Assembly (NCBI GenBank): GCA_016867315.1
Contig: VGJV01000005.1
Span: forward strand, 1 to 54,782
DNA: 54,782 bases
Reading direction: 5' to 3'
Origin: Candidatus Liptonbacteria bacterium
Lineage (GTDB): Bacteria; Patescibacteriota; Minisyncoccia; UBA6257; 2-01-FULL-56-20
How positions within the stretch are numbered: the stretch's first letter is position 1; each line of letters starts with the position of its first letter. The translations under genes were made by a program, and so were the position numbers. The notes beneath the pieces were generated by a model that made no database searches, was not told the origin of the DNA, and was given only the letters and a program-made list of their open reading frames with translations. This document shows positions 21,310-41,851 of this stretch, in pieces.

Positions 21310-21354
21310 TCATTATGCCATTCTATTTTCTATATTTCTAATCTCTATTTTCTA
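21310..21354. repeat. 45-bp direct repeat copy A (stop codon + 7-bp tract + -10 box)
   Basis: 44/45 identical to 40042-40086. Confidence 0.9.
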
Positions 21355-23133
21355 ACTAACCTCTGCTTGATAGCAGGTCTCACAATACACCGTCTCAGGC
21401 CTATCTGGCGCATAGGAAGTTTCGAATGAAACTTCACAGTGATCATTTCCATGGCTGTGACTCGCGGAATTTTTATACACTCCATTTTCCGAAACCTGTC
21501 CCGAACATGCACATTTTCTCTTCCAAAGTTTAATGGGATTCCGCTGCCGGAGCCGCGCATAATGGCGACAACTGGGACATAGGCGAGGCAAAGGAATATT
21601 CATCTGCCGGTAAAATTGGAGTTCCGCCTGAATTATCTTAAAAGCCTTCGTACATTGTTCCGTACAGGCTCCATTGTGTTCACACTGTATGATTTCGTTC
21701 ACGATCGAATCAGGCACTTCCGCAATCGTGCGCGGAAGATGCGCAGATGTCTTTGTTGGCTCATAATGTCGATCTTCCGCTTCTTTGAATATATATCCTT
21801 CCGCAGATGCTTGCTCCTTTGTTATAGGAAACATTTCCTGCGCGATGGTTTCGTTATAAGCAAAAGGGCTGAGTTCCGCAGGGAAGAACTCTCCAAATTT
21901 GTAAATGCGGCCTTTCTTGTCGATGTAAGGCTTTTGCTCCATATGCTCGATAAGCTGGGGCACCATTGCTTCGTATTCCTCTTTCGAATACTGCTTGTTC
22001 AAAATGCAGTATTGCTTATTGCGCATCCCCACGCATCCGAAAAGATATGAGCAGTTATGATTGTTATAGGAATAATAGATATCGTGGGAATCAAACGTGA
22101 ATCGTGAGAAAAACACCTTGCTTCCCGGGTAAATTGTGGAACATTCATATCCCAATTCGGTATTTTTTCCTACCCGATCCACGTCCATACTGTCCTGCAC
22201 TTTAGAGTATGCAAGCCAGGTATTGACACAGTCCTCCGCGCCTCCGAAAACATCGAAGCAATATTTGCAGTTTTTCGTTTGCTCAAGATTGTCTCCGGTT
22301 GAATTCGTGGCGTGCACCATGCGTGCAAACCGTCGCGGGAAATCCAATTTATGCTTTTCGAATCGTTCCCGAATTTTTTGCACTGATGCGACATTACTGA
22401 TATCGAATTCCTTTATTTTCTCTAAATATTCTTCCTTGGTGTACTGCTCGTTAAAAATACAATAGGACTTATTCTTCAAATTCACACAACCGAGGCAATC
22501 GTGGCAATTGTAGCAGTTGAAAAGAAAGGCGGAGTTGTAACATCCATCACAGTAACGACTATAAAGAAGACGAGAACAGGAAATGCAATCCACCGTTTCA
22601 TAATTGAATTCGCATTTCGAGATCCAATACGTATCCGCACACTCTTTACTCGTGAAAGAATAGGTGGAGTAAAGCGTATTCTCATTGAAATCCCCGCCGA
22701 ATACCAGGTAGCAGTTTTTATTCCCTTCGGTAATGCTGCAATACTCGCTATTTACCGGATTGATATTTAAAAGCGCGATATCAGGCACTTCTGTCCAAAG
22801 TTCCTTGAGCTGCGTGAAAAACGGCTTTGAAAAATCTACGTCGCGCGCATAGGTCGAAGCGTCCCAGTTATTCCCCCACCATTCTTTATGGCAATACACC
22901 CGCTGAGGATTATCGGGCGAGAAAATGGAGATCATCTGCTCGTTATGCCCCGGCGCTTGGCACGTTCGCTTATAGAGCGTGCGCTCGTTTCGATATGCCA
23001 TCCGTCGCTGCACCCGACAATCAAAACAAAACGTCGGCGCAGGAATTTTGAGTTTTTTAAAGAAATCAAAGTCTTGAGCGTTCAATTGAAACGCTCGCTT
23101 ACAATTCTGACAAGTTTTTATCTCTGTTTCCAT
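21352..23133 (-). CDS. Cys-rich multi-zinc-ribbon protein, paralog 1 (CPR family of unknown function)
   Basis: METEIKTCQNC...VPxPTFCxxCR...GCVxLxNKxYCIxNxQY twice...LPRLCPSCR...SYAPDRPETVYCETCYQ; true start ATG 23133. Confidence 0.9.
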   Translation of the reverse strand: METEIKTCQNCKRAFQLNAQDFDFFKKLKIPAPTFCFDCRVQRRMAYRNERTLYKRTCQAPGHNEQMISIFSPDNPQRVYCHKEWWGNNWDASTYARDVDFSKPFFTQLKELWTEVPDIALLNINPVNSEYCSITEGNKNCYLVFGGDFNENTLYSTYSFTSKECADTYWISKCEFNYETVDCISCSRLLYSRYCDGCYNSAFLFNCYNCHDCLGCVNLKNKSYCIFNEQYTKEEYLEKIKEFDISNVASVQKIRERFEKHKLDFPRRFARMVHATNSTGDNLEQTKNCKYCFDVFGGAEDCVNTWLAYSKVQDSMDVDRVGKNTELGYECSTIYPGSKVFFSRFTFDSHDIYYSYNNHNCSYLFGCVGMRNKQYCILNKQYSKEEYEAMVPQLIEHMEQKPYIDKKGRIYKFGEFFPAELSPFAYNETIAQEMFPITKEQASAEGYIFKEAEDRHYEPTKTSAHLPRTIAEVPDSIVNEIIQCEHNGACTEQCTKAFKIIQAELQFYRQMNIPLPRLCPSCRHYARLRQRNPIKLWKRKCACSGQVSENGVYKNSASHSHGNDHCEVSFETSYAPDRPETVYCETCYQAEVS

Positions 23134-23137
23134 TGTT

Positions 23138-24907
23138 CTATACCACCTCCGCCTGATAGCATTGCTCGCAATACACAATCTCAGCTCGTTCAGGCGAGTA
23201 TGATGTCTCAAAACTATTAGGACACACTCCCTCCTCATGGAAATGCACGGCTGAATTTTTATACACTCCGTTTTTAGACATTCCCCCAGCACACACACAT
23301 TCCCGCTTCCAAAGCTTCAAAGGATTCCGATGTTTTGTTCTTTGATAATGGCGGCAATTGGAACAAAGGCGAGGTAAGGGAAGAGAAAGCGTCCTGTATA
23401 GTTGCATCTCGAGAGGGATGACCTTGAAAGCAGTAGAGCACTGTTCCTCGCACTTCCCCGCATGAGCACATTCGATAACCTCGCCGGTAACACTCTCCGG
23501 AACATCAGTGATCCGATCAGGGATATTTGAGGAAGCGAGTGTGATTGTATACTGACGCGCCTCGGGATCTCTCCAAGAAAACCCTTGATGCACCGCGCTT
23601 TCCTTAGTAAGAGGAAAAACTTCTTGAGCCACCGTTTGATTGTAGGAATAAGGAGAAAGTTCGGCGGGGAAAAAGTCTCCGTAGCGGTATTCCTTGCCCT
23701 GTTGATCCCGATAAGGCATTGCGTTCATATGCTCGATTATCTTTGCGCGCAACGTTTCGAAGGATTCCTTCGAATATTGCTTGTTCAAAATACAATATTC
23801 TTTTTGCCGCAACCCTACACAGCCAAAAAGATTCGATGATCCCTCACACGCATCGATATAAGAGGAGTGTGCATCCAACCAACCAAGATGAGTACTCACC
23901 AAATGATACCCCTGAAAACAACCGATGCTATCGTAACAAAGTTCGCTTTTTTCGACTGCTACCCACACATCCTCGCAATCCCTGGCCTTATTGCCATGAA
24001 TCAAAAACTTGCAATCCTCGAGCTCCCGGGAGGAAAAACAGTCAGAAGAATTTTTGGAAAAGCTTATGTCATCCCCTGTAGTCCGCACATTCGAAATCCC
24101 GTGGTAATACTTTACCGGAAAAGTAAGACAAAACCCTAAAAATTCCCATTGAAGCTTCTCGAATCCCGCGTGCGAATCGAGCTTTAGTTCTTTTATTCTC
24201 TGTTCATACTCTTCTTTGGAATATTGCTTATTAAAGATGCAGTAGGACTTATTGCGCAATCCCACTGAAGCTACGCAATCGTGACATCCAGAACAATCTC
24301 GGGAAAGAAAAAGGTTATAAGAATCTTTACAGTCCGAGCAAAATGCAGAGCGAGAAACCTTTTGATAATTCGTGAGCTCCACCGACCATTCACACTCCCG
24401 CGAATGCATAAGATCAACTGAGTTTCTGGAAAGGTGCGAGTTATAAAGATACGCACAATCTTCGTCATTATCACTCACAAACGTGAGATAACAATTCTTA
24501 TTGTATCCCGCGCCATTCACATACTCCGAGTTCACATTATTGAACACGAGCGCATATTGGCGCGGCACCATAATTTGAAGCTCGCGAAATTGAGTAAGAA
24601 ACGGCCGGGAAAAATCTACCTCTCTGCCGTATGAAAGCGGATCCCACGAATCTCCATGGTAACAATCACTGCAATAGACCGGAAAAGGTTTATCCGAAGA
24701 AAACACGGAGATAAGCGACTTATTGCATTTCGCGCACACCCGCCGGAATAAACTCCTTTCATTTCTCCAAGTAAGTCTCCGCTGCAGTCGACAAGAAGGA
24801 CAAAACGTAGGCGCCGGGACCTTAAGCCTTTCAAAAAAAGCAAAGTCCTCCGGCTCGATCGAAAACTCGGTTTTACACGCCTGACATTGTTTAGTTTCTG
24901 TATTCAT
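23138..24907 (-). CDS. Cys-rich multi-zinc-ribbon protein, paralog 2
   Basis: Same architecture; start MNTETKQC (24907) or MGIEM (24919). Confidence 0.9.
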   Translation of the reverse strand: MNTETKQCQACKTEFSIEPEDFAFFERLKVPAPTFCPSCRLQRRLTWRNERSLFRRVCAKCNKSLISVFSSDKPFPVYCSDCYHGDSWDPLSYGREVDFSRPFLTQFRELQIMVPRQYALVFNNVNSEYVNGAGYNKNCYLTFVSDNDEDCAYLYNSHLSRNSVDLMHSRECEWSVELTNYQKVSRSAFCSDCKDSYNLFLSRDCSGCHDCVASVGLRNKSYCIFNKQYSKEEYEQRIKELKLDSHAGFEKLQWEFLGFCLTFPVKYYHGISNVRTTGDDISFSKNSSDCFSSRELEDCKFLIHGNKARDCEDVWVAVEKSELCYDSIGCFQGYHLVSTHLGWLDAHSSYIDACEGSSNLFGCVGLRQKEYCILNKQYSKESFETLRAKIIEHMNAMPYRDQQGKEYRYGDFFPAELSPYSYNQTVAQEVFPLTKESAVHQGFSWRDPEARQYTITLASSNIPDRITDVPESVTGEVIECAHAGKCEEQCSTAFKVIPLEMQLYRTLSLPLPRLCSNCRHYQRTKHRNPLKLWKRECVCAGGMSKNGVYKNSAVHFHEEGVCPNSFETSYSPERAEIVYCEQCYQAEVV

Positions 24908-24950
24908 TTCTATTCCCATTACTATACTCCCATTTCTTGTTTTTCTTCCA

Positions 24951-24982
24951 CTATTTTCTTATTCGCGCGAATAAGAAAATAG
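24951..24982. repeat. Perfect 32-bp palindrome
   Basis: CTATTTTCTTATTCGC|GCGAATAAGAAAATAG. Confidence 0.9.
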
Positions 24983-25001
24983 CCTAATATAAGTCACCGA
25001 T

Positions 25002-25400
25002 TTAGTAATACGCCAACTCGAGCTTTATGCCATCCGGATCGGCAAAAAACACGGCGTAGTAACTCTCAGTATATTCAGGGTATTTTGCAGGCGGATCAAA
25101 AATGAAAACTCCCCTTTCTACGAGGAACGCATGCACGTCATCCACTTCTTGAGGCGACTTTGCCTTAAAACAGAAATGATGTAGCCCCGGTGCTCCAAAT
25201 GCATAGGGATGATTTTTCACTTCCGCTTGCTCGATCCAAATCCCGAACCCTTCGGGAGTTTTGAAACCCACGCAATCCACCTCATCCAGCACCTGCGCGT
25301 ACCCAAGCTTCCCAAAAAGCGCGGCATAAAACGGCGCGCTCTTTTTAAGATCGCTTACTGCTAACTTGATATGTCCCGCCGGATCCTTGGATTCAGTCAT
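25002..25400 (-). CDS. VOC/glyoxalase family protein
   Basis: GHIKLAVSDL, GLHHFCFKAKSPQEVD, YYAVFFADPDGIKLEL. Confidence 0.92.
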   Translation of the reverse strand: MTESKDPAGHIKLAVSDLKKSAPFYAALFGKLGYAQVLDEVDCVGFKTPEGFGIWIEQAEVKNHPYAFGAPGLHHFCFKAKSPQEVDDVHAFLVERGVFIFDPPAKYPEYTESYYAVFFADPDGIKLELAYY

Positions 25401-25409
25401 GGTATTTTC

Positions 25410-25685: not shown

Positions 25686-25719
25686 TAGTTTTTATTGTAG
25701 CATTTCTCGACCACTACAA

Positions 25720-25759
25720 TTCCTTATTTTCTTATTCGCGCGAATAAGAAAATAAGGAA
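25720..25759. repeat. Perfect 40-bp palindrome, same core as 24951-24982
   Basis: TTCCTTATTTTCTTATTCGC|GCGAATAAGAAAATAAGGAA; a degenerate third copy lies at 25403-25428. Confidence 0.9.
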
Positions 25760-25769
25760 AATCAGTTTT

Positions 25770-29128: not shown

Positions 29129-30067
29129 CTATCTCGCTTGGGAGCGAACAGTTCCTCGTGCCGGGAATATGAAGTTTTCCCCTTGTGCCCCTGCTATTTC
29201 CAATATAGCATCGTGCCGCGGAAAAGTAGAACAGTGATACAGATTCGCGAGCTCTTCAGAAGTAAACACCAACACATGCCGCGCCTTAAATTCTCGATTG
29301 AGATATTCCCCGAGAAGTCCCTTGGGATTCCGCAACGTCACCCGTTTTAACGCATTCCTTCCCTGCCCTTTAAATTTCTCGAAGCTCGAAAGAACTTCGT
29401 CCAAAATACCGCGAGCTCGAAATTCGGAACCCGCGGAGACCACGACGCGAGCATTCGCCTCAAGGAGCGGTTCTCCCAGTTTCACATGCGTGACGTTCGA
29501 ATTTTCCGAACTGCGTACGGAAACCCGAGATTCGCTCAATCGTTTAGGCTGGACTACAAACTGCACCGCTATTCCTTCCCCGATCGCCGCCACCTCTCGC
29601 AAAGCGAGAAGCACATCTTTAAACATATCCGCCCCCAGTTCTCCATACGTGGGAATCGGCAACGCCGGATGTTCTTTTTGAGTGAGATACGCTCCCATCG
29701 CCACTCCATGCGGATAAAATATGATGTGATTCTCGTGGATCTCCTCCACGCAAAACTTCCCAAAAAGCGCACGCAGTACTTTTAGGGCTTTCCCGCCTAC
29801 TTCGGTCCGTACCCCCACATAAAAATGAATCCGATCGCCCACATGCGGCACGGCGACTTCCAGCAGGAAAGGTTTTTGGAAACCCGCAAGCGTCCGAATG
29901 AGCTTCTCGGCTATAGCGATCTCCGCCGCGGCATCTTCTTCTTTAGTAGAAATTAAAAAGAGTTTCCAAGGACTCCGAAGTCTCCATGCTCGAAGGGCAT
30001 CGATGATGAGATAAAACCCTAACGCCGTCGCAATTACAGAAAAAGTTCCGAGGATAAGCGTTTCCAC
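29129..30067 (-). CDS. Membrane-anchored protein resembling the N-terminal region of CPR TraG/VirD4-like ATPases, with no ATPase domain
   Basis: TM helix, then FLLEVAVPHVGDRIHFY, ALPIPTY, EGIAVQFVVQP, EANARVVVSA, EELANLYH; no Walker A. Family resemblance is from memory, not from a search. Confidence 0.55.
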   Translation of the reverse strand: METLILGTFSVIATALGFYLIIDALRAWRLRSPWKLFLISTKEEDAAAEIAIAEKLIRTLAGFQKPFLLEVAVPHVGDRIHFYVGVRTEVGGKALKVLRALFGKFCVEEIHENHIIFYPHGVAMGAYLTQKEHPALPIPTYGELGADMFKDVLLALREVAAIGEGIAVQFVVQPKRLSESRVSVRSSENSNVTHVKLGEPLLEANARVVVSAGSEFRARGILDEVLSSFEKFKGQGRNALKRVTLRNPKGLLGEYLNREFKARHVLVFTSEELANLYHCSTFPRHDAILEIAGAQGENFIFPARGTVRSQAR

Positions 30068-30160: not shown

Positions 30161-31942
30161 TCATACCACTTCTGCTTGGTAACAAGCCTCGCAATAGACA
30201 ATTTCTGGGCGTTCCGGCGCGTAGGAGGTCTCAAATTGCACAGGACAATGACTATCACCATGACTATGACGAACGGAATTGGCATATACCTTCGTTTCCG
30301 ATTGCGCGCCCGCGCATTGGCATTGTCGCCTAAAGAATTGGGGCAAATTCCTTTTTTCCAAACGGCCATAATGGCGGCAATTGGGACACATACGGGGCAA
30401 AGGAAGATTAAATCGCTTCAAAAAAGCTAGTTCCTGGGGAACAATTCGAAACGCCAAAGTACATTCCTCCTCGCATTCCCCGCCATGCGCACACCCGATA
30501 ACTTCCTTAAGAATTTCTTCGCTCGCCTCCTCCACTCGGTCAGGTAACTGCTCCGCCTTAATAGTCGCGGTGTAATTTCTTTTTTCTTCTTCTCTCCACA
30601 TAAGCCCCTCGGCTTTGACCTGCTCGCGAGTTTTAGGAGATATTTCATGCGCCTCGGTAATGTTGTAGGAAAAAGGAGAAAGTTCCGAGGGGAAAAATTC
30701 GCCGTATTTATAAATTCTCCCCATACGGTCGCAATACGGAACATCGGTCATATGTTTCATAATCTTGGGAACCAGCGATTCGTACTCTTCCTTTGAATAT
30801 TGCTTGTTCAAAATACAGTACTGCTTCTTGCGAAGGCTCACACATCCGAAGACATCCATCGATGCGGGACAAAAAATCGAATATTGCACATTTTTACATC
30901 CGCCGAAACAATTCCACGAAAACCGGACATTATACGTTTGATCTCCGCACACCAACCCCTCGTAGATAAGCTCCGAGCCGGCTCCCCAGTTGGAATAATC
31001 GTAACAGTCCTTCACGGGCCCCGAAAGCAGATTGAGGCAAAATTTAGAATCCTCAATACCCTTCACGCGCCAGCAGTGCTTCGCATTTTTGGAATTATAA
31101 ATATAGTCTCCGCTCACATTTACATTCTGAAGGCCATGCATGAATTTCACCGGGAATGTGAGCCACTGCTCTTCCGCCTGTTCGCGTAAATTTTGAAAAG
31201 CTTTCCACGATCCCAAATTCAGCTCTTTTACCTTTACGGCATATTCCTCTTTCGTATAAGGCACATTGAAAATGCAATATGACTTGCTCCGCAACCCCAC
31301 GCATCCCACGCAATTTGAGCAACCCACGCAATCTTTCGAAAAAAGAACGTCCTGACAGTCCTCGCAATTTACCGAAAAGAAAGTTTTGTAACAACGCGAA
31401 GCATTCACATTTCCATACCCGAATTCACAGGCATCGGTCATATGACTGTCCATACAATTCTTTGAGCCTCCATCCCAAATCAAATATGCCGAATCTTCGG
31501 TTTTTGCGACTGCCCGCGCGAAATAGCAATTCTTGATATATGAAGCGTTGGTGCAGTATTCCGAGTTCACTACGCTTTGAACAGAATGTGCGGGAAAAGG
31601 AATAGCCTGCATAAGTTCATAAATTTGCTCCATAAACGGCCGCTTCCAATCAATATCTCTCCCGTATTCCAAAGGGTCCCACCCGTCTGAATACCAAAAG
31701 TCTTTTTCATAAACAGAAACGGGGGATTCCGGCGGGAAAGCGGAAAAAATCTGCTCTCCGGTTTTCAAATCCTGTTTCTTAAAAAGATGCCAGGTATTTC
31801 TCCAAGACATTCGACGAATCATCCGGCATTGCGGACACCACGTCGGCGGCGGCACTTTTATCTTTTCGTAAAAATCAAAATCCTCCGATTCAATCGTGAA
31901 CTGTTTTTTACATGACTGACAATTCCTGCTTTCTGAATTCAT
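30161..31942 (-). CDS. Cys-rich multi-zinc-ribbon protein, paralog 3
   Basis: MNSESRNCQSC...IVYCEACYQAEVV. Confidence 0.92.
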   Translation of the reverse strand: MNSESRNCQSCKKQFTIESEDFDFYEKIKVPPPTWCPQCRMIRRMSWRNTWHLFKKQDLKTGEQIFSAFPPESPVSVYEKDFWYSDGWDPLEYGRDIDWKRPFMEQIYELMQAIPFPAHSVQSVVNSEYCTNASYIKNCYFARAVAKTEDSAYLIWDGGSKNCMDSHMTDACEFGYGNVNASRCYKTFFSVNCEDCQDVLFSKDCVGCSNCVGCVGLRSKSYCIFNVPYTKEEYAVKVKELNLGSWKAFQNLREQAEEQWLTFPVKFMHGLQNVNVSGDYIYNSKNAKHCWRVKGIEDSKFCLNLLSGPVKDCYDYSNWGAGSELIYEGLVCGDQTYNVRFSWNCFGGCKNVQYSIFCPASMDVFGCVSLRKKQYCILNKQYSKEEYESLVPKIMKHMTDVPYCDRMGRIYKYGEFFPSELSPFSYNITEAHEISPKTREQVKAEGLMWREEEKRNYTATIKAEQLPDRVEEASEEILKEVIGCAHGGECEEECTLAFRIVPQELAFLKRFNLPLPRMCPNCRHYGRLEKRNLPQFFRRQCQCAGAQSETKVYANSVRHSHGDSHCPVQFETSYAPERPEIVYCEACYQAEVV

Positions 31943-31974
31943 TCTATTTTCTACTTTCTATTTTCTAATTTCTA
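31943..31974. repeat. 7-bp tandem tract forming the whole paralog 4-3 spacer
   Basis: mRNA sense: TAG AAATTAG AAAATAG AAAGTAG AAAATAG A ATG. Confidence 0.88.
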
Positions 31975-33702
31975 GGCCACTTCTCGTTGATAACACTCTT
32001 CGCAAAACACCGTTTCTTTCCGATCGGGCGCATACGACGTATCGAATTCATTCGGACAATGTTCCGTTCCGTGGAAATGCTTTCCGGTGTTTTTCCAATT
32101 ATTATTTTCCGAAACAGCTCCACTACACATACATTTCCGGCGCCAAAGCTTCCTCGGCAACCGCAACGCCAACCGACGTCGGTAACGGCATTCGGGACAT
32201 AGTCGAGGAATCGGGACCTTGAACCGACGGTACAATTCCAACTCTGGCTGAATAATGTTGTAATTTCTTTTGCATTGCACGCACGCGAGCGCTTCTTTTA
32301 CTATTGAATCGCCTACATCCTCAATACGATCGGGAATTTTTTCCGAAGAAAGAGTTTCTTTTCCGAATGTACCTGAAACTACTTCTTCCCACTTATACCC
32401 GCGCCCTTGAGCCTCCTTCCGAGAAATCGGCATATAGATATGCCCCTGGGTTTCGTTATATCCGAAAGGACTAAGCCCGGGAGGGAAAAATTCTCCATAT
32501 TCCCCCGTCTTTTTCATATGGTCGATGATCTTCTCTTTGAGCGTGGCGAATTCCTTCTCGTCATACCGCTTATTCAAAATGCTGTATTTCCCCGATTTGA
32601 GTCCCACACACCCAAAAAGATTTTCGGAATTGTGGCATGAATCGCAGTATTGGAGATGAGAATTGTCATAGCTTAAATGAGTAAACATCACGTCATAACA
32701 GCGAACCAATGCATGACACTCATAAAGCAACTCACACGAAAATCCGAAGTGATAACAGTCCATGGTATCTTTCGCATCCACTGCCACAATGATGTTCTTT
32801 GAATCCTGCATCCGCTCAGCATCGAACATAGTATGCCCGTTCTTGGAATTGAAAATGACGTTTCCCGAAACATCGTTTGATTTCTCGATAACGCCAAATC
32901 GGTGCAAAGCCTTCGACGAAATCATTTCAAGAAACGCATCATAAAGTTTCTCCCTCTCTTTATAGGAACTCAGCTGAAACTCTTTCATTTTCTCCATATA
33001 CTCTTCCTTCGTATATGGCTGATTCAAAATATGATACTGCTTATTTCTCAAGTTCGAAGAAAGGAAACAATTTGAACACCCCTTACAGTCATAGCAATAC
33101 AAACAATTCGCACAATCCCAGATGAATATCGAGTACTGACATTCGTATGAGCGATATGCATTGATACACTCATACATAAGCTCATTGCCATACTCGATGC
33201 GGTAGCAATCCATAGAATCGCGCCCCGGGAAAGTGTTCGTGGAATACAAAACATTCTCCGAATCAAAAACTCCAAAGCTTAAATAACAATTCTTGTTATC
33301 CGCCGCATGGTTGGTGTAATCGGAATTCACGCTGTTCTTCGTGAGAAGCGCAATGCGGGGCACCTTGAGTTGCAGCTCTTTAAATTGTTCAAAGAAAGAC
33401 CTCGAAAAATCAAAGTCCTGCCCATGATCTAACGCGCTCCACTTATCCGACCACCAGCACGGCGGACAATAAACTTTATAAGGCTTGTTGGGCGAATAGA
33501 TTGTCACCGTGCTCTTCCCGCAAAGGTCGCAGTTCCGGCGATAAAGCACCCGCTCATTCCGCCACGCTGCCCGCCGCCGTAAGCGGCACTCCGGACAACG
33601 CACGGGCGCAGGAACGTTGAACTTTTCGTAAAATCCGATATCGTCCGCCTCAATCGGGAATTCCACGCTGCATTCTTTGCAAATTCTTTTTTCCGGTTTC
33701 AT
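31972..33702 (-). CDS. Cys-rich multi-zinc-ribbon protein, paralog 4
   Basis: MKPEKRICKEC...TVFCEECYQREVA. Confidence 0.92.
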   Translation of the reverse strand: MKPEKRICKECSVEFPIEADDIGFYEKFNVPAPVRCPECRLRRRAAWRNERVLYRRNCDLCGKSTVTIYSPNKPYKVYCPPCWWSDKWSALDHGQDFDFSRSFFEQFKELQLKVPRIALLTKNSVNSDYTNHAADNKNCYLSFGVFDSENVLYSTNTFPGRDSMDCYRIEYGNELMYECINAYRSYECQYSIFIWDCANCLYCYDCKGCSNCFLSSNLRNKQYHILNQPYTKEEYMEKMKEFQLSSYKEREKLYDAFLEMISSKALHRFGVIEKSNDVSGNVIFNSKNGHTMFDAERMQDSKNIIVAVDAKDTMDCYHFGFSCELLYECHALVRCYDVMFTHLSYDNSHLQYCDSCHNSENLFGCVGLKSGKYSILNKRYDEKEFATLKEKIIDHMKKTGEYGEFFPPGLSPFGYNETQGHIYMPISRKEAQGRGYKWEEVVSGTFGKETLSSEKIPDRIEDVGDSIVKEALACVQCKRNYNIIQPELELYRRFKVPIPRLCPECRYRRRLALRLPRKLWRRKCMCSGAVSENNNWKNTGKHFHGTEHCPNEFDTSYAPDRKETVFCEECYQREVA

Positions 33703-33738: not shown

Positions 33739-35514
33739 CTAAACTATTTCCGCGTTATAACACTGCTCGCAATATACGATTTCTTTTCGTTCAGATGCAT
33801 AAGACGTTTCGAACTCGTTAACGCATGGAGCATCCCCGTGCGAGTGTACGGCAGTATTTTTATAAACCCCATTTGCAGACTGGCCTCCTGCGCACGAACA
33901 CTTTCGCCTCCAAAGTCGCAGAGGGTTTCTTGAACGAATTCGCTCTCCCCGACGGCATATCGGACACAAACGCGGCAATGGCAAATTGAATTTCTTTAAG
34001 AATTGAAGCTCCTGCGGAATAATCCGAAATGCAGTCGAACAATAATCACTGCATTTGCCCTGATGAGCACATTCGATTACCTCCTGGAGAATCGAATCGG
34101 AAACGTCAGAAATATCATCGGGAACTTCCCCAATTTTCTTTGTAATCTGATAAACTTTCCGCCCGCTCTCGTACCACGTGAATCCTTCCGCTAACGCCTC
34201 CTCCTTAGTCTTTGGGAAAAAGTCTTGCGCAGCCGATTCGTTGTATGCAAAAGGAGAAAATTCTGCGGGAAAGAACTCCCCGTATCCATATTTTAATCCT
34301 CGAGCATCAACGTAGGGCATTGTTTTCATATGCTCAATTATTTTCGGCACAAGCGCTTTATAATCCACCTCTGAATATTGTTTATTCAATATGCAATACG
34401 ATTTGTTACGAAGTCCCACACATCCAAAGATATTATTACAGTCGAAACAATTGTAGGAATATTGAATATCAAATCCTCCCCAAATAAGCGCGGAATAAAA
34501 TACCCTCTGCCCAGAAACGCTAAATACGTCGAGAAAAAGCTCTGAATTGTTCCAAACCACGAAGCCATCAGAACCATCTTTGACCCTATCAAACGAACGG
34601 TAGGTATGACGCACATTTTCAATATCGTTCCAAATACTAAAGCAATCGGAACAATTGCGAGCATTCAATATGTCATCACCCTTCACATTTTCTGACTTGA
34701 GAATTGTTGCAAATTTCCGAGGAGTGGAAAGTTTCAATGCTTCAAATTTCTCCCGTACCGCGCGAAGTCCATTTGCGCTTCCTAATTTCAAACGTTCCAG
34801 CTCTTTTAAATATTCTTCTTTGGAATATTGCTTATTGAAAATACAAAAGGACTTATTCCGCAATCCTACGCACCCGACACAAGAGCTGCAATTCCGACAG
34901 TCATATAAAAAAGTCGAATCGCTGCACGCTACACAATTCTGCACAAACCGGACTCCATTGCATTTTTCCGCATCAACGACTTCGTACGAATATTCCATGT
35001 CGCGTGACTGGAATGTATCGAAACACTGACGGCTACGGGGAGCTCCTCCAAACATATATGCGCAATCTTCAGACTGCGTAGCGCCGCCTATGAAATAGCA
35101 GTTTTTTAAATCCACTGCGTAATTCGCGTAATCGCTATTTACTAAATTCTTTTGTATGAGATTAGGATGCGGAACAGCCGATAATAATTCCTTGATCTGC
35201 GAAAAAAAGGGCTTAGAAAAATCCGGATCCACTCCATATTGCATAGGATCCCACGCATCACTTTTCCAATATTCATTTACATAAACTTTATAGGGCCGCT
35301 CCGGCGCATACATAGAAAGAACCTCTTTTCCAGTCGCATCGCACTTTCGGCGATACCAAATACACTCGTTCCTGAAAAGCATTCGCCGAATAGTGCGGCA
35401 TTTCGAACAAAATGTCGGCAAGGGCACCTTAACTTTTTCATAAAAATTCAAATCCTCGGCCTCAATGGTAAATTGAGCCTTACAGTTTTGGCACGATCGC
35501 GTTTCCGCGTTCAT
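33739..35514 (-). CDS. Cys-rich multi-zinc-ribbon protein, paralog 5
   Basis: MNAETRSCQNC...IVYCEQCYNAEIV. Confidence 0.92.
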   Translation of the reverse strand: MNAETRSCQNCKAQFTIEAEDLNFYEKVKVPLPTFCSKCRTIRRMLFRNECIWYRRKCDATGKEVLSMYAPERPYKVYVNEYWKSDAWDPMQYGVDPDFSKPFFSQIKELLSAVPHPNLIQKNLVNSDYANYAVDLKNCYFIGGATQSEDCAYMFGGAPRSRQCFDTFQSRDMEYSYEVVDAEKCNGVRFVQNCVACSDSTFLYDCRNCSSCVGCVGLRNKSFCIFNKQYSKEEYLKELERLKLGSANGLRAVREKFEALKLSTPRKFATILKSENVKGDDILNARNCSDCFSIWNDIENVRHTYRSFDRVKDGSDGFVVWNNSELFLDVFSVSGQRVFYSALIWGGFDIQYSYNCFDCNNIFGCVGLRNKSYCILNKQYSEVDYKALVPKIIEHMKTMPYVDARGLKYGYGEFFPAEFSPFAYNESAAQDFFPKTKEEALAEGFTWYESGRKVYQITKKIGEVPDDISDVSDSILQEVIECAHQGKCSDYCSTAFRIIPQELQFLKKFNLPLPRLCPICRRGERIRSRNPLRLWRRKCSCAGGQSANGVYKNTAVHSHGDAPCVNEFETSYASERKEIVYCEQCYNAEIV

Positions 35515-37021: not shown

Positions 37022-38019
37022 AAAAAATAAAAGTAGCGCTTATCTGCGGAGGTTTTTCGAGCGAAAGAGAAGTCTCTTTAAAATCCGGCGCCCAAATCGC
37101 CCGATCGCTCACCTCCGAAAAATACGAAGTCTCTTTGATTGAGATCGCGAAAGACGGGCGCTGGCTGCTTTCCTCCGACTCGAAAGAAATAAACAGCGGA
37201 GAAAAGACCCTATCGATTCTTCCAGGAAACACGGCGATTGCTCAAAGCGACTTGCGCGGGGTAGATGTAGCGTTTTTGGCCTTACATGGTTATTTCGGGG
37301 AGGATGGAAAAATCCAATCAATTCTTGAACTTCTCGGGATCCCCTACACCGGCTCGGGAGTTATGGCGAGCGCCACCGCCATGAACAAAGCGAAAACAAA
37401 TGAACTGGCTGCACTTGCAGATCTAAAAGTCCCCCCATTCATCGTGGCACACAACTCAAAAATAAAACCGGATTTTGGTTATCCTGTCGTGGTAAAACCA
37501 AACGAATCCGGGTCTTCTGTAGGAGTGACTATAGTCGAGAAAGAGTCCGATTTGGAGAAAGCTCTCGAAAAGGCCTTAAGCGAAGGCGGCGAAGCAATCG
37601 TTCAAAAATACATAGCTGGCCGAGAACTTACTTGCGGAGTGATGGGCAATAGCGGCCGCACGGAAATCCTTGCCCTTCCTCCAATTGAAATTGTCTCTCC
37701 CAATAAGTTTTTTGATTACGAAGCAAAATACACCTCCCAGGAAACACAAGAAATCTGTCCCGCTCCCGTGGATGAATCAATCACGCGCGCCGTCCAAGAA
37801 GTTGCAAAAAAAGTGCATGTACTTTTAGGTTGCGATGGCTTGACTCGGTCGGACTTTATTCTCGACAAAGAAAGCAACTTACACTTTCTCGAAATCAACA
37901 CGATTCCCGGCATGACCGAAGCAAGCCTCGCCCCCAAAGAAGCCAAAGCTCTCGGGTGGAGCTTCCCTGACTTTCTCGACAAAATCATTACTCTCGCCCT
38001 TGAACGACATAAAAAGTAG
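37018..38019 (+). CDS. ddl: D-alanine--D-alanine ligase
   Basis: GGFSSEREVSLKSG, ALHGYFGEDG, PYTGSG, VVKPNESGSSVG, FFDYEAKY, RSDF, LEINTIPGMT. Confidence 0.96.
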   Translation: MKKIKVALICGGFSSEREVSLKSGAQIARSLTSEKYEVSLIEIAKDGRWLLSSDSKEINSGEKTLSILPGNTAIAQSDLRGVDVAFLALHGYFGEDGKIQSILELLGIPYTGSGVMASATAMNKAKTNELAALADLKVPPFIVAHNSKIKPDFGYPVVVKPNESGSSVGVTIVEKESDLEKALEKALSEGGEAIVQKYIAGRELTCGVMGNSGRTEILALPPIEIVSPNKFFDYEAKYTSQETQEICPAPVDESITRAVQEVAKKVHVLLGCDGLTRSDFILDKESNLHFLEINTIPGMTEASLAPKEAKALGWSFPDFLDKIITLALERHKK

Positions 38020-38205
38020 TCAATTCACCCGGAGTTCATTCGGCAACGAGGATACTGTAAAAGCTTTTTGATAAGTACCTCGCTCATTTTTCGCAGGGAG
38101 GAGGGGTCTTCCTTCTACAGTATTGTGGAGTACCCTGGTCATGCACGGTTCTCACAAAAGGTGCAGCAAGGAATTGCCTCCCCCTGCGATAGGTTGTTTT
38201 CAACG

Positions 38206-38230
38206 AAAAAGCCCATGCTTACACATGGGC
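38206..38230 (-). terminator. Terminator after rplU
   Basis: GCCCATG/CATGGGC stem followed by TTTTT on the minus strand. Confidence 0.7.
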
Positions 38231-38240
38231 AAATTCTTTT

Positions 38241-38552
38241 TTAAATTTTCGTAATTTCCACCTCCGTAAACGACTGTCGGTGTCCCTTTTTCTTCTTCTG
38301 TCTCGTCTTCGAGTGATATTTGAATACGATTTTCTTCTTGTCCCGTGCCTGCCGTACTACTTTTCCTTCTACCGAAGCTCCTGATACATAGGGCGCTCCG
38401 ATCTGCACCGCCTCTCCATCCGCAGTAAGTAATACTTTGTCGAAGGTAACCGAAGCTCCCGCTTCCGCGTTAAGCTTTTCTACCTTCAGCTTTTCTCCCG
38501 CAGAAACTTTGTATTGTTTTCCACCAGTCTCAATTACAGCAAATTTAGTCAT
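38241..38552 (-). CDS. rplU: 50S ribosomal protein L21
   Basis: FAVIETGGKQYKV...GAPYV...KKKGHRQ.FTE..I. Confidence 0.97.
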   Translation of the reverse strand: MTKFAVIETGGKQYKVSAGEKLKVEKLNAEAGASVTFDKVLLTADGEAVQIGAPYVSGASVEGKVVRQARDKKKIVFKYHSKTRQKKKKGHRQSFTEVEITKI

Positions 38553-38638
38553 GGTATTTAGTAAAAATTAAGCCGGCTTGCCCCGTAGAATCCCGCAGGG
38601 ATTTGTACGGGGTTTCTATGACTGCGAATTTATCCATT

Positions 38639-38992
38639 TCAGTTGACATGTATGATAGCCGCAAACCAAATGAAAATCAAGATAGCGAAGAAAAACGTGC
38701 TTCCTACGAGAAACATCCCCAGATAATGCTTCCGATCAAGGAGCGCCGCTGCAATCGCGCTATTTACAAGAAGAAATAGCACCCAAAACCCTCCATTCAT
38801 AAGAATATATCCAAGCGTTCCCACCTCCGTTATCCCTGTCTTTTCGGTAAAGTGAATGATAAGCGGCTGGGAAATATCTCGAAGGACCATATACGCCCAC
38901 CCCATTCCCACGAACACCAAAAGAAACGAAAGGACGAGTAATACGGTCGCAAGCCTATGCCTCATAACCCAATTTCCGGTATTTCTAAACAT
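38639..38992 (-). CDS. Small membrane protein (3 TM), hypothetical
   Basis: Hydrophobic segments around PLIIHF; start ATG 38992 overlaps the galT stop region. Confidence 0.72.
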   Translation of the reverse strand: MFRNTGNWVMRHRLATVLLVLSFLLVFVGMGWAYMVLRDISQPLIIHFTEKTGITEVGTLGYILMNGGFWVLFLLVNSAIAAALLDRKHYLGMFLVGSTFFFAILIFIWFAAIIHVN

Positions 38993-39998
38993 CTTTTGCG
39001 CGCGAAGATTTACGCTCCCCACGAAGGAACGCTGCTCCCTCTTCCGGAAGCACCACATTCACATCCACCCCGGTGCTCAATTCGAATCCAGCCGGAATCG
39101 AAATCTTTGGGAAAATTTCAATATGCCAGTGATAATGACCATGTTGTTCTTTAGCCTCAAGCGGAGCCGTGTGAATGAAAAAATTGAAATCTGGATCATT
39201 CAAATTTTGCTTCATGCGGCGAAGCACTCCCTGGAGCACTTCTACGGCTCCTTTGATGTCCTTAATACTCGCCTCCTCAAACCGTGACACATGCTGGGTG
39301 GGATACACTCGTACCTCGAAGGGCTGCCGGGACACGAAAGGCGCCACTCCGATTGCCTGCTCATTACCCTCTATCACGCGAGTCCCCGCTTCCCATTCAA
39401 AAAGAAGCATGTCGCAATGCACACACCGATGCCGTTTCGCAAAATATTCCTTGGAACCCTCCAAAGAATGAGTCACATCTGGAGGAACAATCGGTAGCGC
39501 CAAAATCTGATAATGCGGGTGATAAAGCGATGCTCCGGCCGAAGGTCCCCAGTTCGCGAAAGTGGATACATAGCGCGAGCATCCATCCTTCGCAAATCGG
39601 CGGTACATTTTCTGCATCATGAGAAAAAGATTTACCGCTTCGGAAATCGAAAGCTCTGCTAAATTCTTCGTATGATCCTTGGTAATCACAAGATCATGAT
39701 GCCCGATTCCTTCAAGATACGAATAAGGCCCGTTGCGCATCTCCATAGCACACCAATCTTCTCTTTTAAGCGCCGGATATTTGTTCCGTATTACCGCGAT
39801 CTGCCACGGTCCTTTCGCGGGATATTGGGCGCGCAATGGCCAATTTCCAGAAGCCTCGAGATCTTCAAAGGGACACGTAGCCTTCGGAGATACGACACGC
39901 TTCTTCTTTTTAGGCAAAAAGTCATGCGGGCGCTTTCCTCGTTCGGGCGCCATAATGATCCAATCTCCGGAAACTAAATCTTGGCGAAGTTCACTCAT
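38985..39998 (-). CDS. galT: Galactose-1-phosphate uridylyltransferase (GalT/HIT family)
   Basis: SELRQD.VSG.W.I.A.ERGKRP, CPF, NKYPAL, GASLYHPHYQ, YHWHIEIFP, GFELSTG. Confidence 0.88.
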   Translation of the reverse strand: MSELRQDLVSGDWIIMAPERGKRPHDFLPKKKKRVVSPKATCPFEDLEASGNWPLRAQYPAKGPWQIAVIRNKYPALKREDWCAMEMRNGPYSYLEGIGHHDLVITKDHTKNLAELSISEAVNLFLMMQKMYRRFAKDGCSRYVSTFANWGPSAGASLYHPHYQILALPIVPPDVTHSLEGSKEYFAKRHRCVHCDMLLFEWEAGTRVIEGNEQAIGVAPFVSRQPFEVRVYPTQHVSRFEEASIKDIKGAVEVLQGVLRRMKQNLNDPDFNFFIHTAPLEAKEQHGHYHWHIEIFPKISIPAGFELSTGVDVNVVLPEEGAAFLRGERKSSRAKDV

Positions 39999-40041
39999 AG
40001 AAAGTAGGAAATAGTGAGTAGAAAGTGGAATCGACCCGCCC

Positions 40042-40086
40042 TCATTATGCCATTCTATTTTCTATATTTCTAATTTCTATTTTCTA
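40042..40086. repeat. 45-bp direct repeat copy B
   Basis: 44/45 identical to 21310-21354. Confidence 0.9.
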
Positions 40087-40110
40087 GTTAACTTCTTGCT
40101 GGTAACAATT
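40084..40110 (-). pseudogene. Relic 3' end of a Cys-rich paralog (NCYQQEVN*)
   Basis: Matches the family terminus CYQxEVx*; separated from paralog 6 by a palindromic GC-rich element (40115-40146). Confidence 0.7.
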
Positions 40111-40156
40111 TTATCCTCCTTCGCTAAAGCTACGACGAGACTCCGCATGCTCACTA

Positions 40157-41851
40157 TCACAGAACTTCTTTTTGGTAGCATGCTTCGCAGTATACAATCT
40201 CTGGCCGCTCCGGCGCATACGAAGTCTGCATAGCCGCCCCACACTTCGCACATGTGCGATCATAAATATGAATTGGATTTAACTGTTTGATCCGGGCACG
40301 ATCCCGACATAAAGGACATTCTCGTGGAACCGGCAATCCGAACCGCTTTAAGAACTGCAATTCCATAGGGATAATCTGATAGTTTTTCCCGCAGGAAACG
40401 CATTTCAAAATCTCTTTAGTAATCGTATCCGGAATATCTTTGATGTGTTCGGGAAGCTCTACCGTCGCCTCACGATACTCTCGCGCATCCGGATCGCGCC
40501 ATAGAAAACCGTCTTTCGTAGCCTCTTCTTTGGATTTAGGAAACCATTCGCACACCGTAGCTTCGTTATAAGTCCACGGACTCATCTCGGCCGGCAGCAT
40601 TTCGCCGTATCGGTATTCGCGCCCCATGCTGTCCCGGTACGGCACTTCCATCATCTGTTTTTTAATGTGATCCACCAGCTTCAGATATTCCTCTTGTGAA
40701 TATTGCTTGTTCAAAATGCAATATTCCGTCCCGCCCCGGAGTCCCACGCACCCGAAAAGATTCCCGGAATTCATGCACCCAAAACAATATTCGATATCCC
40801 TGGACCCATAATTCCAAGCCGAAAACCGCACCTGCGAAGTGGTAAGCCCCACCCACGCGGACTCATATACCCATTCCCCGTTATCACCAAAAAAAGACCA
40901 ATCATAAGAATTCCTCGCCGGCCCGTTTTTTAAGAATTGGCAGTAGCATAAATTTTCCCCGTTCCCCAACATAAAAGACTCCCGAACATTTTTCGAATTG
41001 AAAATATAATCTCCGGAAACATTCACATTTTTGAGCCCATGGAAATTCCTACGCGGGTGCTTTAAGAAAAAGACTTCCGCCTTTTCGGCAAATTCTTTTA
41101 CCTTTTGCGAAGAGCCAAGATCTAATTGAGTTTTAAATTGTTCATATTCTTCCTTGGTCTTTTGTTCATTAAATATGCAGTATTGCTTGCTTCGAAGATT
41201 GATACAGCCAATACAATCCGAACAACCTGAGAGATCCTTAGAAAACCAAATATTGTGACAGCTATCGCAGTTATCCGAAAAAAATGCCTGGTAACACTTG
41301 TTAATTCTCACCGAGCCGTAACACGACTCTATCGAGTTCGCAAAAGAACAATCGAGTGAATCTTTGGCCTCGAGAATCGTACTCAAATAGGCGTTATTTT
41401 CTCCTCCGGTAATACGGAAACATAAGTAACAATTTTTGAGTCCTGACGCCGCATTACAATAATCGCTATTCTGCAGCGTAGAATAGGCCGTATAAAGATT
41501 CGGTAACGGCACTTCCTGAAGCAATTCTTGGAACTGCTCCAAAAATGGTCTTGAAAAATCTACGTCTCTCCCATAGCTCTTCGGATCCCATGTATCCGAC
41601 CACCATATATCCTGCCGGTACATTTTGTGGGGCGCTTCGGGATGATGAGTGGTAAAAAGCATCTCTCCGGTAAAATCACATTTGCGCTTATAGAAAATTC
41701 GATATCCCTGCCAGGAAAGCCGGCGCGTAAGCCGGCATTGCGGGCACCACGTAGGCGGTGGCACATGAATAGTTTCATAAAATGCAAAATCATCCGGCTC
41801 GATAATGAATTCCGACCCGCAACTTTTGCATTGTTTGGTTTCGGAATTCAT
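40157..41851 (-). CDS. Cys-rich multi-zinc-ribbon protein, paralog 6 (short C-terminal variant)
   Basis: MNSETKQCKSC...RTCAKCGAAMQTSYAPERPEIVYCEACYQKEVL. Confidence 0.92.
   Translation of the reverse strand: MNSETKQCKSCGSEFIIEPDDFAFYETIHVPPPTWCPQCRLTRRLSWQGYRIFYKRKCDFTGEMLFTTHHPEAPHKMYRQDIWWSDTWDPKSYGRDVDFSRPFLEQFQELLQEVPLPNLYTAYSTLQNSDYCNAASGLKNCYLCFRITGGENNAYLSTILEAKDSLDCSFANSIESCYGSVRINKCYQAFFSDNCDSCHNIWFSKDLSGCSDCIGCINLRSKQYCIFNEQKTKEEYEQFKTQLDLGSSQKVKEFAEKAEVFFLKHPRRNFHGLKNVNVSGDYIFNSKNVRESFMLGNGENLCYCQFLKNGPARNSYDWSFFGDNGEWVYESAWVGLTTSQVRFSAWNYGSRDIEYCFGCMNSGNLFGCVGLRGGTEYCILNKQYSQEEYLKLVDHIKKQMMEVPYRDSMGREYRYGEMLPAEMSPWTYNEATVCEWFPKSKEEATKDGFLWRDPDAREYREATVELPEHIKDIPDTITKEILKCVSCGKNYQIIPMELQFLKRFGLPVPRECPLCRDRARIKQLNPIHIYDRTCAKCGAAMQTSYAPERPEIVYCEACYQKEVL

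Follow-up and report, generated by a model that had tools for sequence, protein, structure and literature searches.

Cysteine-rich Paceibacteria proteins with treble-clef finger ends and predicted beta-solenoid cores are encoded beside VirD4/TraD-like ATPases

In the VirB/VirD4-Bep locus of Bartonella, paralogous effectors are arrayed behind a coupling-protein gene. Patescibacteria, a large part of bacterial diversity, carry thousands of VirD4-like coupling-protein genes that lie mostly away from virB4 and are without an assigned role; in the one tractable species, genes for type IV secretion are indispensable, and no substrate has been reported for them (PMC12102498, PMC12857230). There are ~2 genes for type IV coupling proteins (T4CPs) per genome, almost none of which are near virB4, itself located elsewhere near dnaA, and in the one genetically tractable patescibacterium, a member of a different class, the T4CP homolog was reported to be non-essential (PMC12102498). 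The ATPases described below resemble these orphan T4CPs (~2 homologs per genome away from virB4; Quinonero-Coronel et al. 2025, PMC12102498); unlike here, the accessible text of that study describes virB4 neighborhoods and names no T4CP partner or substrate. The literature searched contained no link of T4CPs to a Cys-rich family, to the membrane proteins B and X considered below, or to a Zn-finger extension. The result added by this analysis is that a Cys-rich protein family is found beside VirD4/TraD-like ATPases across many genomes.

The window, i.e., the whole stretch of 54,782 nucleotides that was analyzed, contains six members of this family. An initial sequence-only reading had described them as co-oriented paralogs of 564-593 aa in groups of two, three and one, which the open reading frames (ORFs), all intact, confirmed:

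21352..23133, minus strand: paralog 1, 593 aa, 36 Cys
23138..24919, minus strand: paralog 2, 593 aa, 36 Cys
30161..31942, minus strand: paralog 3, 593 aa, 36 Cys
31972..33702, minus strand: paralog 4, 576 aa, 34 Cys
33739..35514, minus strand: paralog 5, 591 aa, 33 Cys
40157..41851, minus strand: paralog 6, 564 aa, 32 Cys

For paralog 1, the ORF list reaches a GTG at 23298, and the public gene calls place the start at an ATG at 23133 (593 aa). The other window paralogs are 40-46% identical to paralog 1 in pairwise comparison. Cysteine accounts for 5.6-6.1% of each protein (32-36 residues), in agreement with the ~6%, and ~36 in paralog 1, given previously, and because every 19-residue window of the paralogs stays below a Kyte-Doolittle value of 1.6, no transmembrane (TM) or signal-like segment is seen in them, as had also been proposed. 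The genes are tightly packed, with 4 nt between the stop of paralog 2 and the start of paralog 1 and 29-36 bp among the members of the three-gene array, which opens with paralog 5; paralog 6 begins 32 bp after the end of pbp2 (encoding PBP2) in an mreB-mreC-mreD-pbp2 row.

A nested A-B-B'-A' duplication had been suggested for these proteins, and profile-profile alignment (hhalign) placed it far above chance, with significant matches of A to A' (probability 99.3%, E 9e-21) and B to B' (probability 99.7%, E 5e-26) and all remaining module pairs at E > 0.1. In paralog 1 the parts are arranged as follows:

22834-23133, minus strand: module A, residues 1-100
22414-22833, minus strand: module B, residues 101-240
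22330-22413, minus strand: helix, residues 241-268
21967-22329, minus strand: module B', residues 269-389
21700-21966, minus strand: linker, residues 390-478
21355-21699, minus strand: module A', residues 479-593

The motifs that had been read from the sequence, CxxC...PxPxxCPxCR and GCVGLxNKxYCIxNxQYSKEEY, were both seen in the paralog alignment. Modules A and A' are pairs of treble-clef zinc fingers (zf_Tbcl plus zf_Tbcl_2) followed by a basic helix, and zinc would be the bound metal. This corresponds to the two-finger combination of zf_Tbcl (PF13451) and zf_Tbcl_2 (PF23477; TIGR04272, CxxC-x17-CxxC), which also occur as stand-alone proteins of 40-84 aa in bacteria and archaea. With the true members of these families the modules share two CxxC pairs, a helix at the second pair (in the predicted model) and detectable homology. 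Unlike Pfam zf_Tbcl members, most family copies fall just under the thresholds, the best paralog score being 19.6 bits for zf_Tbcl (gathering cut-off 24) and 26.5 bits for zf_Tbcl_2 (paralog 6; cut-off 27), with the other copies at 15-19 bits against the Pfam finger models, and several have lost the Cys residues of the second N-terminal finger. That finger is an intact CxxC-x17-CxxC in paralog 2 and degenerate, without Cys, in paralog 3; in A', the first finger of paralog 4 is shortened by a small deletion and an insert of ~22 residues is missing from paralog 6. Three Cys4 sites are present in all six copies (C8/C11/C36/C39, C484/C494/C519/C522 and C541/C566/C584/C587). The helices that come after the CxxC pairs are Arg-rich: all six copies have R40, R43 and R44, while R523 and R527 are unchanged in 123 of 123 sequences. 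In a Foldseek search of BFVD, module A matched phage "zinc-ribbon domain" models (probability 1.0, rmsd 0.8 Å over 44-45 columns).

Modules B and B' are predicted to be beta-solenoids, each with approximately nine coils of 12 residues rich in Asn and Cys and a conserved cap (GCVGLRNKxYCIxNxQYSKEEY) that closes it; an alpha/beta linker comes after the second solenoid. The full-length AlphaFold 2 model had a pLDDT of 85 and a pTM of 0.86; the central domain modeled alone (pLDDT 85.7) showed long beta runs, and a 12-residue periodicity is present in the sequence of this region. Top Foldseek matches of the central domain were beta-helix or solenoid proteins without exception. In coil length and stacked beta runs the modeled domain may thus be likened to known solenoids, and it was compared with the left-handed hexapeptide beta-helix, the pentapeptide-repeat proteins Qnr and MfpA (among the weak matches), right-handed pectate-lyase and tailspike helices, and the 12-residue Cys-rich beetle antifreeze proteins. 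Unlike these, the family gave no significant match (best values E 4e-3 to 0.1, TM-score ≤ 0.17) and has no hexapeptide or pentapeptide consensus, the Hexapep and Pentapeptide Pfam models failing to match the paralogs even at E ≤ 1; no catalytic or sugar-binding residues could be identified in the family solenoids. Foldseek searches of PDB and BFVD with the full model and the central domain returned nothing at E ≤ 0.001, the family profile returned nothing from the PDB sequences even at E ≤ 10, and Pfam and NCBIfam at E ≤ 1 yielded the sub-threshold fingers and nothing else. Structure prediction and Foldseek had been proposed as a check for a characterized enzyme fold, and none explains the family; no Pfam or NCBIfam family, PDB relative or defense model matches the paralogs either. 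On the strength of the models, one of the larger "hypothetical protein" families from the candidate phyla radiation (CPR) may be described structurally as two treble-clef finger pairs around two 12-residue-repeat solenoids.

The family is large and old. At least 7,392 matches at E ≤ 0.001 were obtained among 8,000 candidates scored, corresponding to more than 7,000 clusters at 90% identity; all 120 listed matches were labeled "hypothetical", with no Pfam domain on the protein body, and all named sources were Parcubacteria/Paceibacteria lineages. This supports the earlier statement that CPR bacteria have many unannotated members of the family. A literature search on the family, PF13451 or Cys-rich proteins in CPR/Paceibacteria found nothing relevant. 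A single 20-kb locus carries between 1 and 9 copies, and invariance would have spoken against the original proposal. Each window copy is 52-72% identical to proteins of other genomes and 40-46% identical to its window paralogs. Because the closest relative of every paralog sits in another genome, the proposed "expansion" cannot be taken as a recent lineage-specific burst; the six copies are, judging from these sequence comparisons, ancient and separately maintained paralogs. The paralog 1 subfamily is the best conserved (53 of 422 compared relatives at least 60% identical, its own database entry included), and paralog 3 shares 65-72% identity with its orthologs elsewhere.

Conservation within the protein had been described as high at the termini and low at the center. 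Among the six paralogs, identity is 46% for A, 53% for A', 41% for B and 36% for B', so that the conserved termini were upheld, while the "strongly diverged" center proved to be a moderate gradient in which the caps at the C-terminal ends of B and B' (61-73%) are the most conserved parts of the whole protein. Between orthologs the order is different: par1-type orthologs are 77/69% identical in B/B' vs 60/63% in the termini, and par3-type orthologs 73/80% vs 70/65%. The par1 and par3 solenoids differ between paralogs yet stay conserved inside each ortholog line, and for these two best-sampled copies the comparison of ortholog and paralog conservation fits the suggested scaffold with paralog-specific surfaces.

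Five of the six window copies lie among housekeeping genes (for example PGK, Ddl, GalT and PBP2). In other loci, family members were not found next to the genes that neighbor them in the window (PGK, Ddl, PBP2, MreB and others). One par1-type ortholog stands alone between gyrB and ybaB, overlapping the gyrB stop codon; this adjacency was considered as meaningful context and rejected, as it did not recur elsewhere. The three-gene array is followed by a gene of a different kind:

29129..30067, minus strand: N-domain protein, 312 aa, with one N-terminal TM segment and an ATPase N-domain homolog

The gap between paralog 3 and this downstream gene, which shares its strand, is 93 bp, and the gene is followed by a terminator-like hairpin (29072-29050). 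Its product is homologous to the N-domain of the long VirD4/TraD-like ATPases (30% identity, E 5e-40, to L002 residues 60-339), stops where the ATPase domain would begin, and also matches membrane protein B of the S-B-X-T cluster (hhalign, 96.5%, E 9e-10). No ATPase domain is encoded in the whole window or within 10 kb past its right end.

Across genomes, genes for T4CP-like ATPases were present in 31 of 79 loci found via the family, co-oriented with it and often only tens of bp away. Conversely, when the ATPase served as the independent seed, the family was present in 54 of 65 loci (those having at least 2.5 kb of flank), and all 142 family ORFs in ATPase-seeded loci were on the ATPase strand. 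Of 95 short ATPases, 77 have a family member no more than 1.5 kb away, as do 21 of 27 Zn-finger ATPases. In Pfam, the neighboring ATPases score above threshold for TrwB_AAD_bind, T4SS-DNA_transf and TraG-D_C. In the Zn-finger ATPases, the C-terminal finger scores above the zf_Tbcl_2 threshold (43.4 bits) and is homologous to the terminal fingers of the family (hhalign, 96.1%, E 3e-9 and 91.7%, E 8e-7); this common finger is seen by Pfam and profile-profile comparison only, the family HMM giving no match to the ATPases at E ≤ 0.01. Gene order changes between genomes (S-B-X-T-Fn, S-B-X-F-F-T and Tzn-F-F-T), which speaks against merely frozen synteny, and the linkage withstands this rearrangement with three distinct ATPase paralog classes taking part. 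Part of the synteny may be inherited, as SecD-SecF-S-B-X-T-CutA1-F is conserved as a block. Across lineages the ATPases are 65-86% identical vs ~39% for family members at the same positions, which is the pattern of a conserved motor and fast-evolving clients. The first member of the array behind the ATPase shows no positional orthology, first-versus-first identity (38.9%) being the same as first-versus-second (39.3%).

By analogy, the arrangement may be compared with that of the Bartonella VirB/VirD4-Bep locus, in that a conserved T4CP gene is flanked by a co-oriented array of duplicated, diverging paralogs that have a common architecture and a conserved terminal module. Unlike Bep proteins, the family has no sequence or fold similarity to FIC or BID and is also scattered among housekeeping genes, and unlike in Bartonella, no virB channel genes were among the annotated flank genes (judged by annotation rather than by systematic search). 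Given their family-wide linkage, the proteins are candidates for cargo or adaptors of coupling ATPases. This linkage also renders the previously suggested role as host-interaction factor plausible, without proving it.

The reading we tentatively favor, at somewhat less than even confidence, is that these are soluble, probably non-enzymatic binding scaffolds that serve as clients of orphan T4CPs and are translocated as cargo or effectors. The family proteins would work together with the membrane-associated VirD4/TraD-like ATPases, which would recognize them by the conserved terminal finger modules also found on one ATPase class and pass them on for translocation from the epibiotic cell. Several observations sit uneasily with a client role: the window holds only an N-domain homolog, most copies are in a housekeeping context, and all members share one architecture and length, which is unusual for effector repertoires. 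Metal-stabilized folded proteins are also awkward substrates for type IV secretion, and the reported non-essentiality of the T4CP homolog in the tractable species (PMC12102498) weighs against this role as well. With more than 7,000 clusters, consistent linkage to T4CP ATPases and a finger shared with one ATPase class, the family offers concrete partner or cargo candidates, and the question of the T4CP role becomes testable by binding and translocation experiments.

Linkage and the common finger would equally suit cytoplasmic adaptor or receptor subunits that dock on the ATPases by their fingers, each solenoid recruiting other DNA or protein cargo, an alternative we consider possible but doubtful. 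The Legionella T4CP DotL carries the Zn-binding subunit DotN, and the role of DotN, IcmSW and LvgA for DotL may offer a parallel; constant architecture and length with paralog-specific yet ortholog-conserved solenoids would be appropriate for specificity adaptors. Adaptors, however, are normally few and conserved, whereas here up to 9 copies occur per locus with ~39% identity between lineages, and many copies are far from any ATPase gene.

A more far-reaching form of the client reading, which we judge unlikely, is that the family is the exported cargo of an unrecognized coupling-ATPase pathway widespread in Paceibacteria, made up of the short and Zn-finger T4CP paralogs together with the membrane proteins B and X (the latter HEPN-like), with docking by the common zinc finger. 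The proteins might then be the long-sought effectors or surface factors by which epibionts act on their hosts.

It is quite unlikely that the proteins are ATPase-independent housekeeping factors that bind nucleic acid or mimic DNA, with T4CP adjacency as inherited gene order. Here, the basic finger ends would bind DNA or RNA and the solenoids would act like pentapeptide-repeat proteins, which the Arg-rich helices with their invariant arginines, the weak Qnr/MfpA matches, the housekeeping neighbors (including the gyrB overlap) and the syntenic SecDF...CutA1 block would accommodate. The gyrB adjacency, however, is not recurrent, the ATPase linkage persists after rearrangement in three ATPase paralog classes, and neither Pfam matches nor TM-scores support a pentapeptide or hexapeptide fold.

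The sequence-only reading had also raised an anti-phage or sensor function, and conflict sensors with diversifying surfaces that perhaps signal to a HerA/T4CP-like ATPase and protein X now appear very improbable. Family members occur in multiple copies of variable number and diverge fast, the ATPase is weakly similar to the mad8 and HerA models of PADLOC, and protein X has an Rx4H motif and matches a HEPN model marginally (E 0.0026). Against this, the ATPase gene belongs to the core, at 65-86% conservation, in contrast to defense genes, the supposedly variable parts of par1 and par3 orthologs are under clear purifying selection, and the genes lie among housekeeping neighbors in neither a defense island nor a mobile element. 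The family proteins have no NTPase or effector domain; three paralogs gave zero matches to PADLOC-DB v2 at E ≤ 0.01, tblastn against 50,697 phage records found no match to the family, and IMG/VR contained one marginal fragment at a contig end, so that the family is essentially absent from phage and viral collections.

Storage or buffering of zinc, copper or iron, or Fe-S redox activity, is hardly credible despite the ~6% Cys, the CxxCxxCxxC run of module B (not Cys at matching positions of B' and other paralogs) and the CutA1 gene immediately upstream of a family gene in 21 loci, since the six copies have only ~16 invariant Cys columns, of which 12 belong to the three Cys4 finger sites, with the other solenoid Cys varying from paralog to paralog, the paralogs contain no ferredoxin or radical-SAM motif (neither CxxCxxCxxxC(P) nor CxxxCxxC) and no Pfam Fe-S match, and a constant two-fold architecture of 590 aa would be excessive for storage.

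Public lake metagenome contigs, at low depth, derive from essentially the same strain, 20 kb showing six variant sites, and the "joints" between paralogs seen in this metagenome look like assembler chimeras at common motifs.

Six Cys-rich genes, numbered here by ascending coordinate, encode the family members of the window.

21352-23133, minus strand, paralog 1 (593 aa)
23138-24919, minus strand, paralog 2 (593 aa)
30161-31942, minus strand, paralog 3 (593 aa)
31972-33702, minus strand, paralog 4 (576 aa)
33739-35514, minus strand, paralog 5 (591 aa)
40157-41851, minus strand, paralog 6 (564 aa)

The copies align end to end with 40-46% identity to paralog 1 (mean column identity 59%), each contains 32-36 Cys (5.6-6.1% of residues), and no hydrophobic segment fit for a TM helix or signal peptide was found in any of the six. 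Coordinates, lengths and Cys counts agree with the sequence-only reading, which described six co-oriented paralogs of 564-593 aa with about 6% Cys and neither TM segment nor signal peptide. In public gene calls, paralog 1 begins with the ATG at 23133 and is 593 aa long; a longer version from the GTG at 23298 in a mechanical ORF list, which adds 23134-23298 and would overlap the paralog 2 3' end by 161 nt, was rejected as a listing artefact. Within the groups, neighbouring copies are separated by only 4, 36 and 29 bp, a spacing suggestive of operons. Paralog 6 starts 32 bp past the PBP2 stop, at the end of a mreB-mreC-(mreD-like)-pbp2 row (row and paralog 6 together, 40157-46036), and is therefore probably co-transcribed with these cell-shape genes; the adjacency was found in just one further locus (L053). 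Neighbouring genes in the window have housekeeping roles (DHHA1, glyoxalase, ArsR, PGK, pyridine-nucleotide oxidoreductase, PMT_2 glycosyltransferase, Ddl, GalT/HIT and PBP2-MreDCB), none of which is conserved beside the family elsewhere.

Profile-profile comparison confirmed the nested A-B-B'-A' duplication first noted from the sequence alone, as the terminal modules A and A' aligned with 99.3% probability (E 9e-21) and the central modules B and B' with 99.7% (E 5e-26), while every other segment pair stayed at noise level. A pair of treble-clef zinc fingers makes up each terminal module. Matches to zf_Tbcl and to zf_Tbcl_2 (the CxxC-x17-CxxC domain of NCBIfam) fall slightly under the Pfam threshold, a helix begins at each second CxxC in the AlphaFold model, and a terminal module superposes with phage "zinc-ribbon domain" models (probability 1.0, rmsd 0.8 Å). 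Three Cys4 sites are invariant throughout the six copies, paralogs 3, 5 and 6 have no Cys left in the second N-terminal finger, and Arg-rich helices follow the fingers. B and B' each consist of ~9 repeats with a period of ~12 residues, roughly [N/D/E]-[C/S/T]-x-hydrophobic-x-hydrophobic-x6, closed by the cap GCVGLRNKxYCIxNxQYSKEEY. The full-length model (pLDDT 85, pTM 0.86) reached just 60-70 pLDDT in B/B'; residues 96-400 modelled alone gave 85.7 overall and >90 in B, and the beta runs in this model are long and stacked. Foldseek returned no significant match against the PDB, its top matches (E 4e-3 to 0.1, TM <= 0.17) all being beta-helix or solenoid proteins, led by left-handed acyltransferases and followed by P22 tailspike, AlgE4 and Qnr/MfpA. 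The structure and PDB sequence searches turned up neither an enzyme fold nor a catalytic motif, nor any sequence relative in the PDB. The majority of solenoid Cys are not invariant among the six copies, making a role as obligatory cluster ligands unlikely. Among variant proteins (P0254, P0147 and P0235), one of 731 aa appears by eye to join a GNAT-like N-terminal extension to a divergent family member, and those of 444 and 483 aa lack a solenoid module or carry it in shortened form.

The family is very large, old and unannotated. Of 8,000 candidates scored in a profile search, 7,392 reached E <= 0.001; nearly all of the 120 top entries listed measured 580-610 aa, and all named entries among them were "hypothetical". 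An exhaustive search of 50%-representatives gave 5,190 clusters. Named sources in the profile search were Parcubacteria-type lineages (Paceibacterota, Staskawicz-, Lipton- and Wolfebacteria), which bears out the sequence-only reading of an abundant, unannotated CPR family, and genome loci added Nomura-, Kaiser- and Giovannonibacteria, Sungiibacteriota and Minisyncoccia; the "Saccharibacteria" tag on many automated MAG records was not used for taxonomic range. The family was essentially missing from phage and viral collections. Co-oriented arrays are its usual layout, with at least two copies in 54 of 79 genome loci and a maximum of nine in 21 kb. At 21861/30671, 31969/40067 and elsewhere, public short-read contigs contain "joints" that switch between paralogs at shared motifs; assembler chimeras are the most likely cause, a caution for copy-number estimates of the family in MAGs.

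All six window paralogs are nearer to proteins of other genomes than to their five siblings, with best outside matches of 71, 52, 72, 58, 61 and 59% for paralogs 1 to 6, respectively. The copies are thus old subfamilies, which contradicts a recent burst as the meaning of the "expansion" proposed earlier. The accompanying claim of conserved termini around a diverged centre held between paralogs, where identity was lowest in B (41%) and B' (36%) compared to A (46%) and A' (53%), but the order was reversed within orthologs of paralog 1 (B 77%, B' 69%; termini 60% and 63%) and paralog 3 (B 73%, B' 80%; termini 70% and 65%). Diverged between paralogs yet conserved in orthologs, the solenoids behave as paralog-specific functional surfaces under purifying selection in these two best-sampled copies; the pattern is less clear in the thinly sampled ortholog sets of paralogs 2, 4, 5 and 6.

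De novo clustering of flanking ORFs at the 79 genome loci identified one dominant neighbour, a P-loop ATPase (43 copies in 31 loci) that is co-oriented with the arrays and often mere tens of bp away. It scores above Pfam thresholds for TrwB_AAD_bind, T4SS-DNA_transf and TraG-D_C, and its best NCBIfam similarities, all under cut-off, are to VirD4/TraD coupling proteins. The ATPase was thus near the family in 39% of loci, compared to ~5% by our own estimate of the chance of finding a VirD4-like gene no more than 10 kb from any one gene in genomes <1 Mb. Published counts (PMC12102498) give ~2 VirD4-like genes per Patescibacteria genome, with just 148 of 5,713 near virB4. An independent reverse test used 80 metagenome loci seeded with the 490-aa short ATPase; 65 of them had 2.5 kb or more of flank, the family was present in 54 of these, and all 142 family ORFs lay on the ATPase strand. 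The family was within 1.5 kb of 77/95 short ATPases and 21/27 Zn-finger ATPases. Gene order varied, S-B-X-F-F-T, Tzn-F-F-T and F-F-T all being present (F, family; T, short ATPase; Tzn, Zn-finger ATPase; S, B and X, cluster proteins).

The Zn-finger class (575-800 aa) carries a C-terminal CxxC-x17-CxxC finger past the ATPase domain (43.4 bits on zf_Tbcl_2, cut-off 27), which is homologous to the family terminal fingers (hhalign 96.1%, E 3e-9 and 91.7%, E 8e-7) and is also found alone in bacterial and archaeal proteins of 40-84 aa. The long class has a TM segment and N-domain ahead of the ATPase. Linkage to the three coupling-protein-like ATPase classes is robust, resistant to rearrangement and accompanied by a shared domain. 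In Zn-finger ATPases (L075 3597-5678 and 24 similar ORFs), a LADLGIEF motif is conserved after the finger, beyond which lies a long low-complexity Lys/Glu/Pro tail, in many cases with a conserved C-terminal (K/R)EVPEDVLRKILE.

The recurrent cluster comprises SecD, SecF, S, B, X, short ATPase, CutA1 and the family array, at whose end a second ATPase paralog often stands; the row from SecD to CutA1 is conserved in Paceibacteria, as at L023 5481-9989, L132 4805-11831, L159 4556-11816 and many other loci. Protein S (~340 aa) combines sigma-70 region 4 with HARE-HTH. Protein B (~450 aa, N-terminal TM segment(s)) is homologous to the long-ATPase N-domain (96.5%, E 9e-10), so that B and the short ATPase together resemble a long ATPase divided between two proteins. 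Protein X (~180 aa, one TM segment) has an Rx4H motif in its C-terminal domain (RVRNDLVH; L023 7995-8510) and a marginal PADLOC match to CARF_HEPN (E 0.0026), and may be a membrane-anchored HEPN-like domain. A CutA1 gene (divalent-ion tolerance, PF03091) immediately precedes a family member in 21 loci, and its place is often between ATPase and array (e.g., L004 9526-9993, L132 11526-11831, L159 11511-11816). The short ATPase is 65-86% identical across lineages, unusually high for Paceibacteria genomes, compared to ~39% for family members at equivalent positions.

We infer that family proteins work with these ATPases. We tentatively favour a role as their clients or cargo because a conserved motor is paired with fast-evolving partners of variable copy number and genome-wide dispersal, by analogy with Bartonella VirD4-Bep, a coupling protein with an effector array. 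Adaptors of the ATPases would fit the constant architecture better than clients do, and are a possible but weaker candidate. A housekeeping role in nucleic-acid binding, independent of the ATPases, is unlikely, though conceivable given that the window copies lie among core genes and that some of the synteny may reflect inheritance. Defence and metal storage or an Fe-S function found little support; defence is improbable, and metal storage or an Fe-S function more improbable still. No description of the family or its ATPase linkage was found in the searchable literature; treble-clef fingers, beta-solenoid and coupling-protein-like ATPase are known kinds of component, and their combination is new, bearing directly on what patescibacterial type IV machinery handles.

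Besides the client or cargo candidates themselves, the window holds a possible trace of the long ATPase.

29129-30067, minus strand, ORF with TM segment and N-domain, 93 bp downstream of paralog 3 and co-oriented with it

This ORF contains the TM segment and N-domain only (30% identity, E 5e-40 to a long ATPase) and stops at the expected start of the ATPase domain, where a terminator-like hairpin comes next; it is called here the window's putative relic of the long ATPase. Neither the window nor the 10 kb that follow its right end on the parent contig (75.6 kb) contains an ATPase domain. A large CARDB/PKD-domain surface-type protein (51106-54771) is cut by the window end and measures 1,973 aa on the parent contig.
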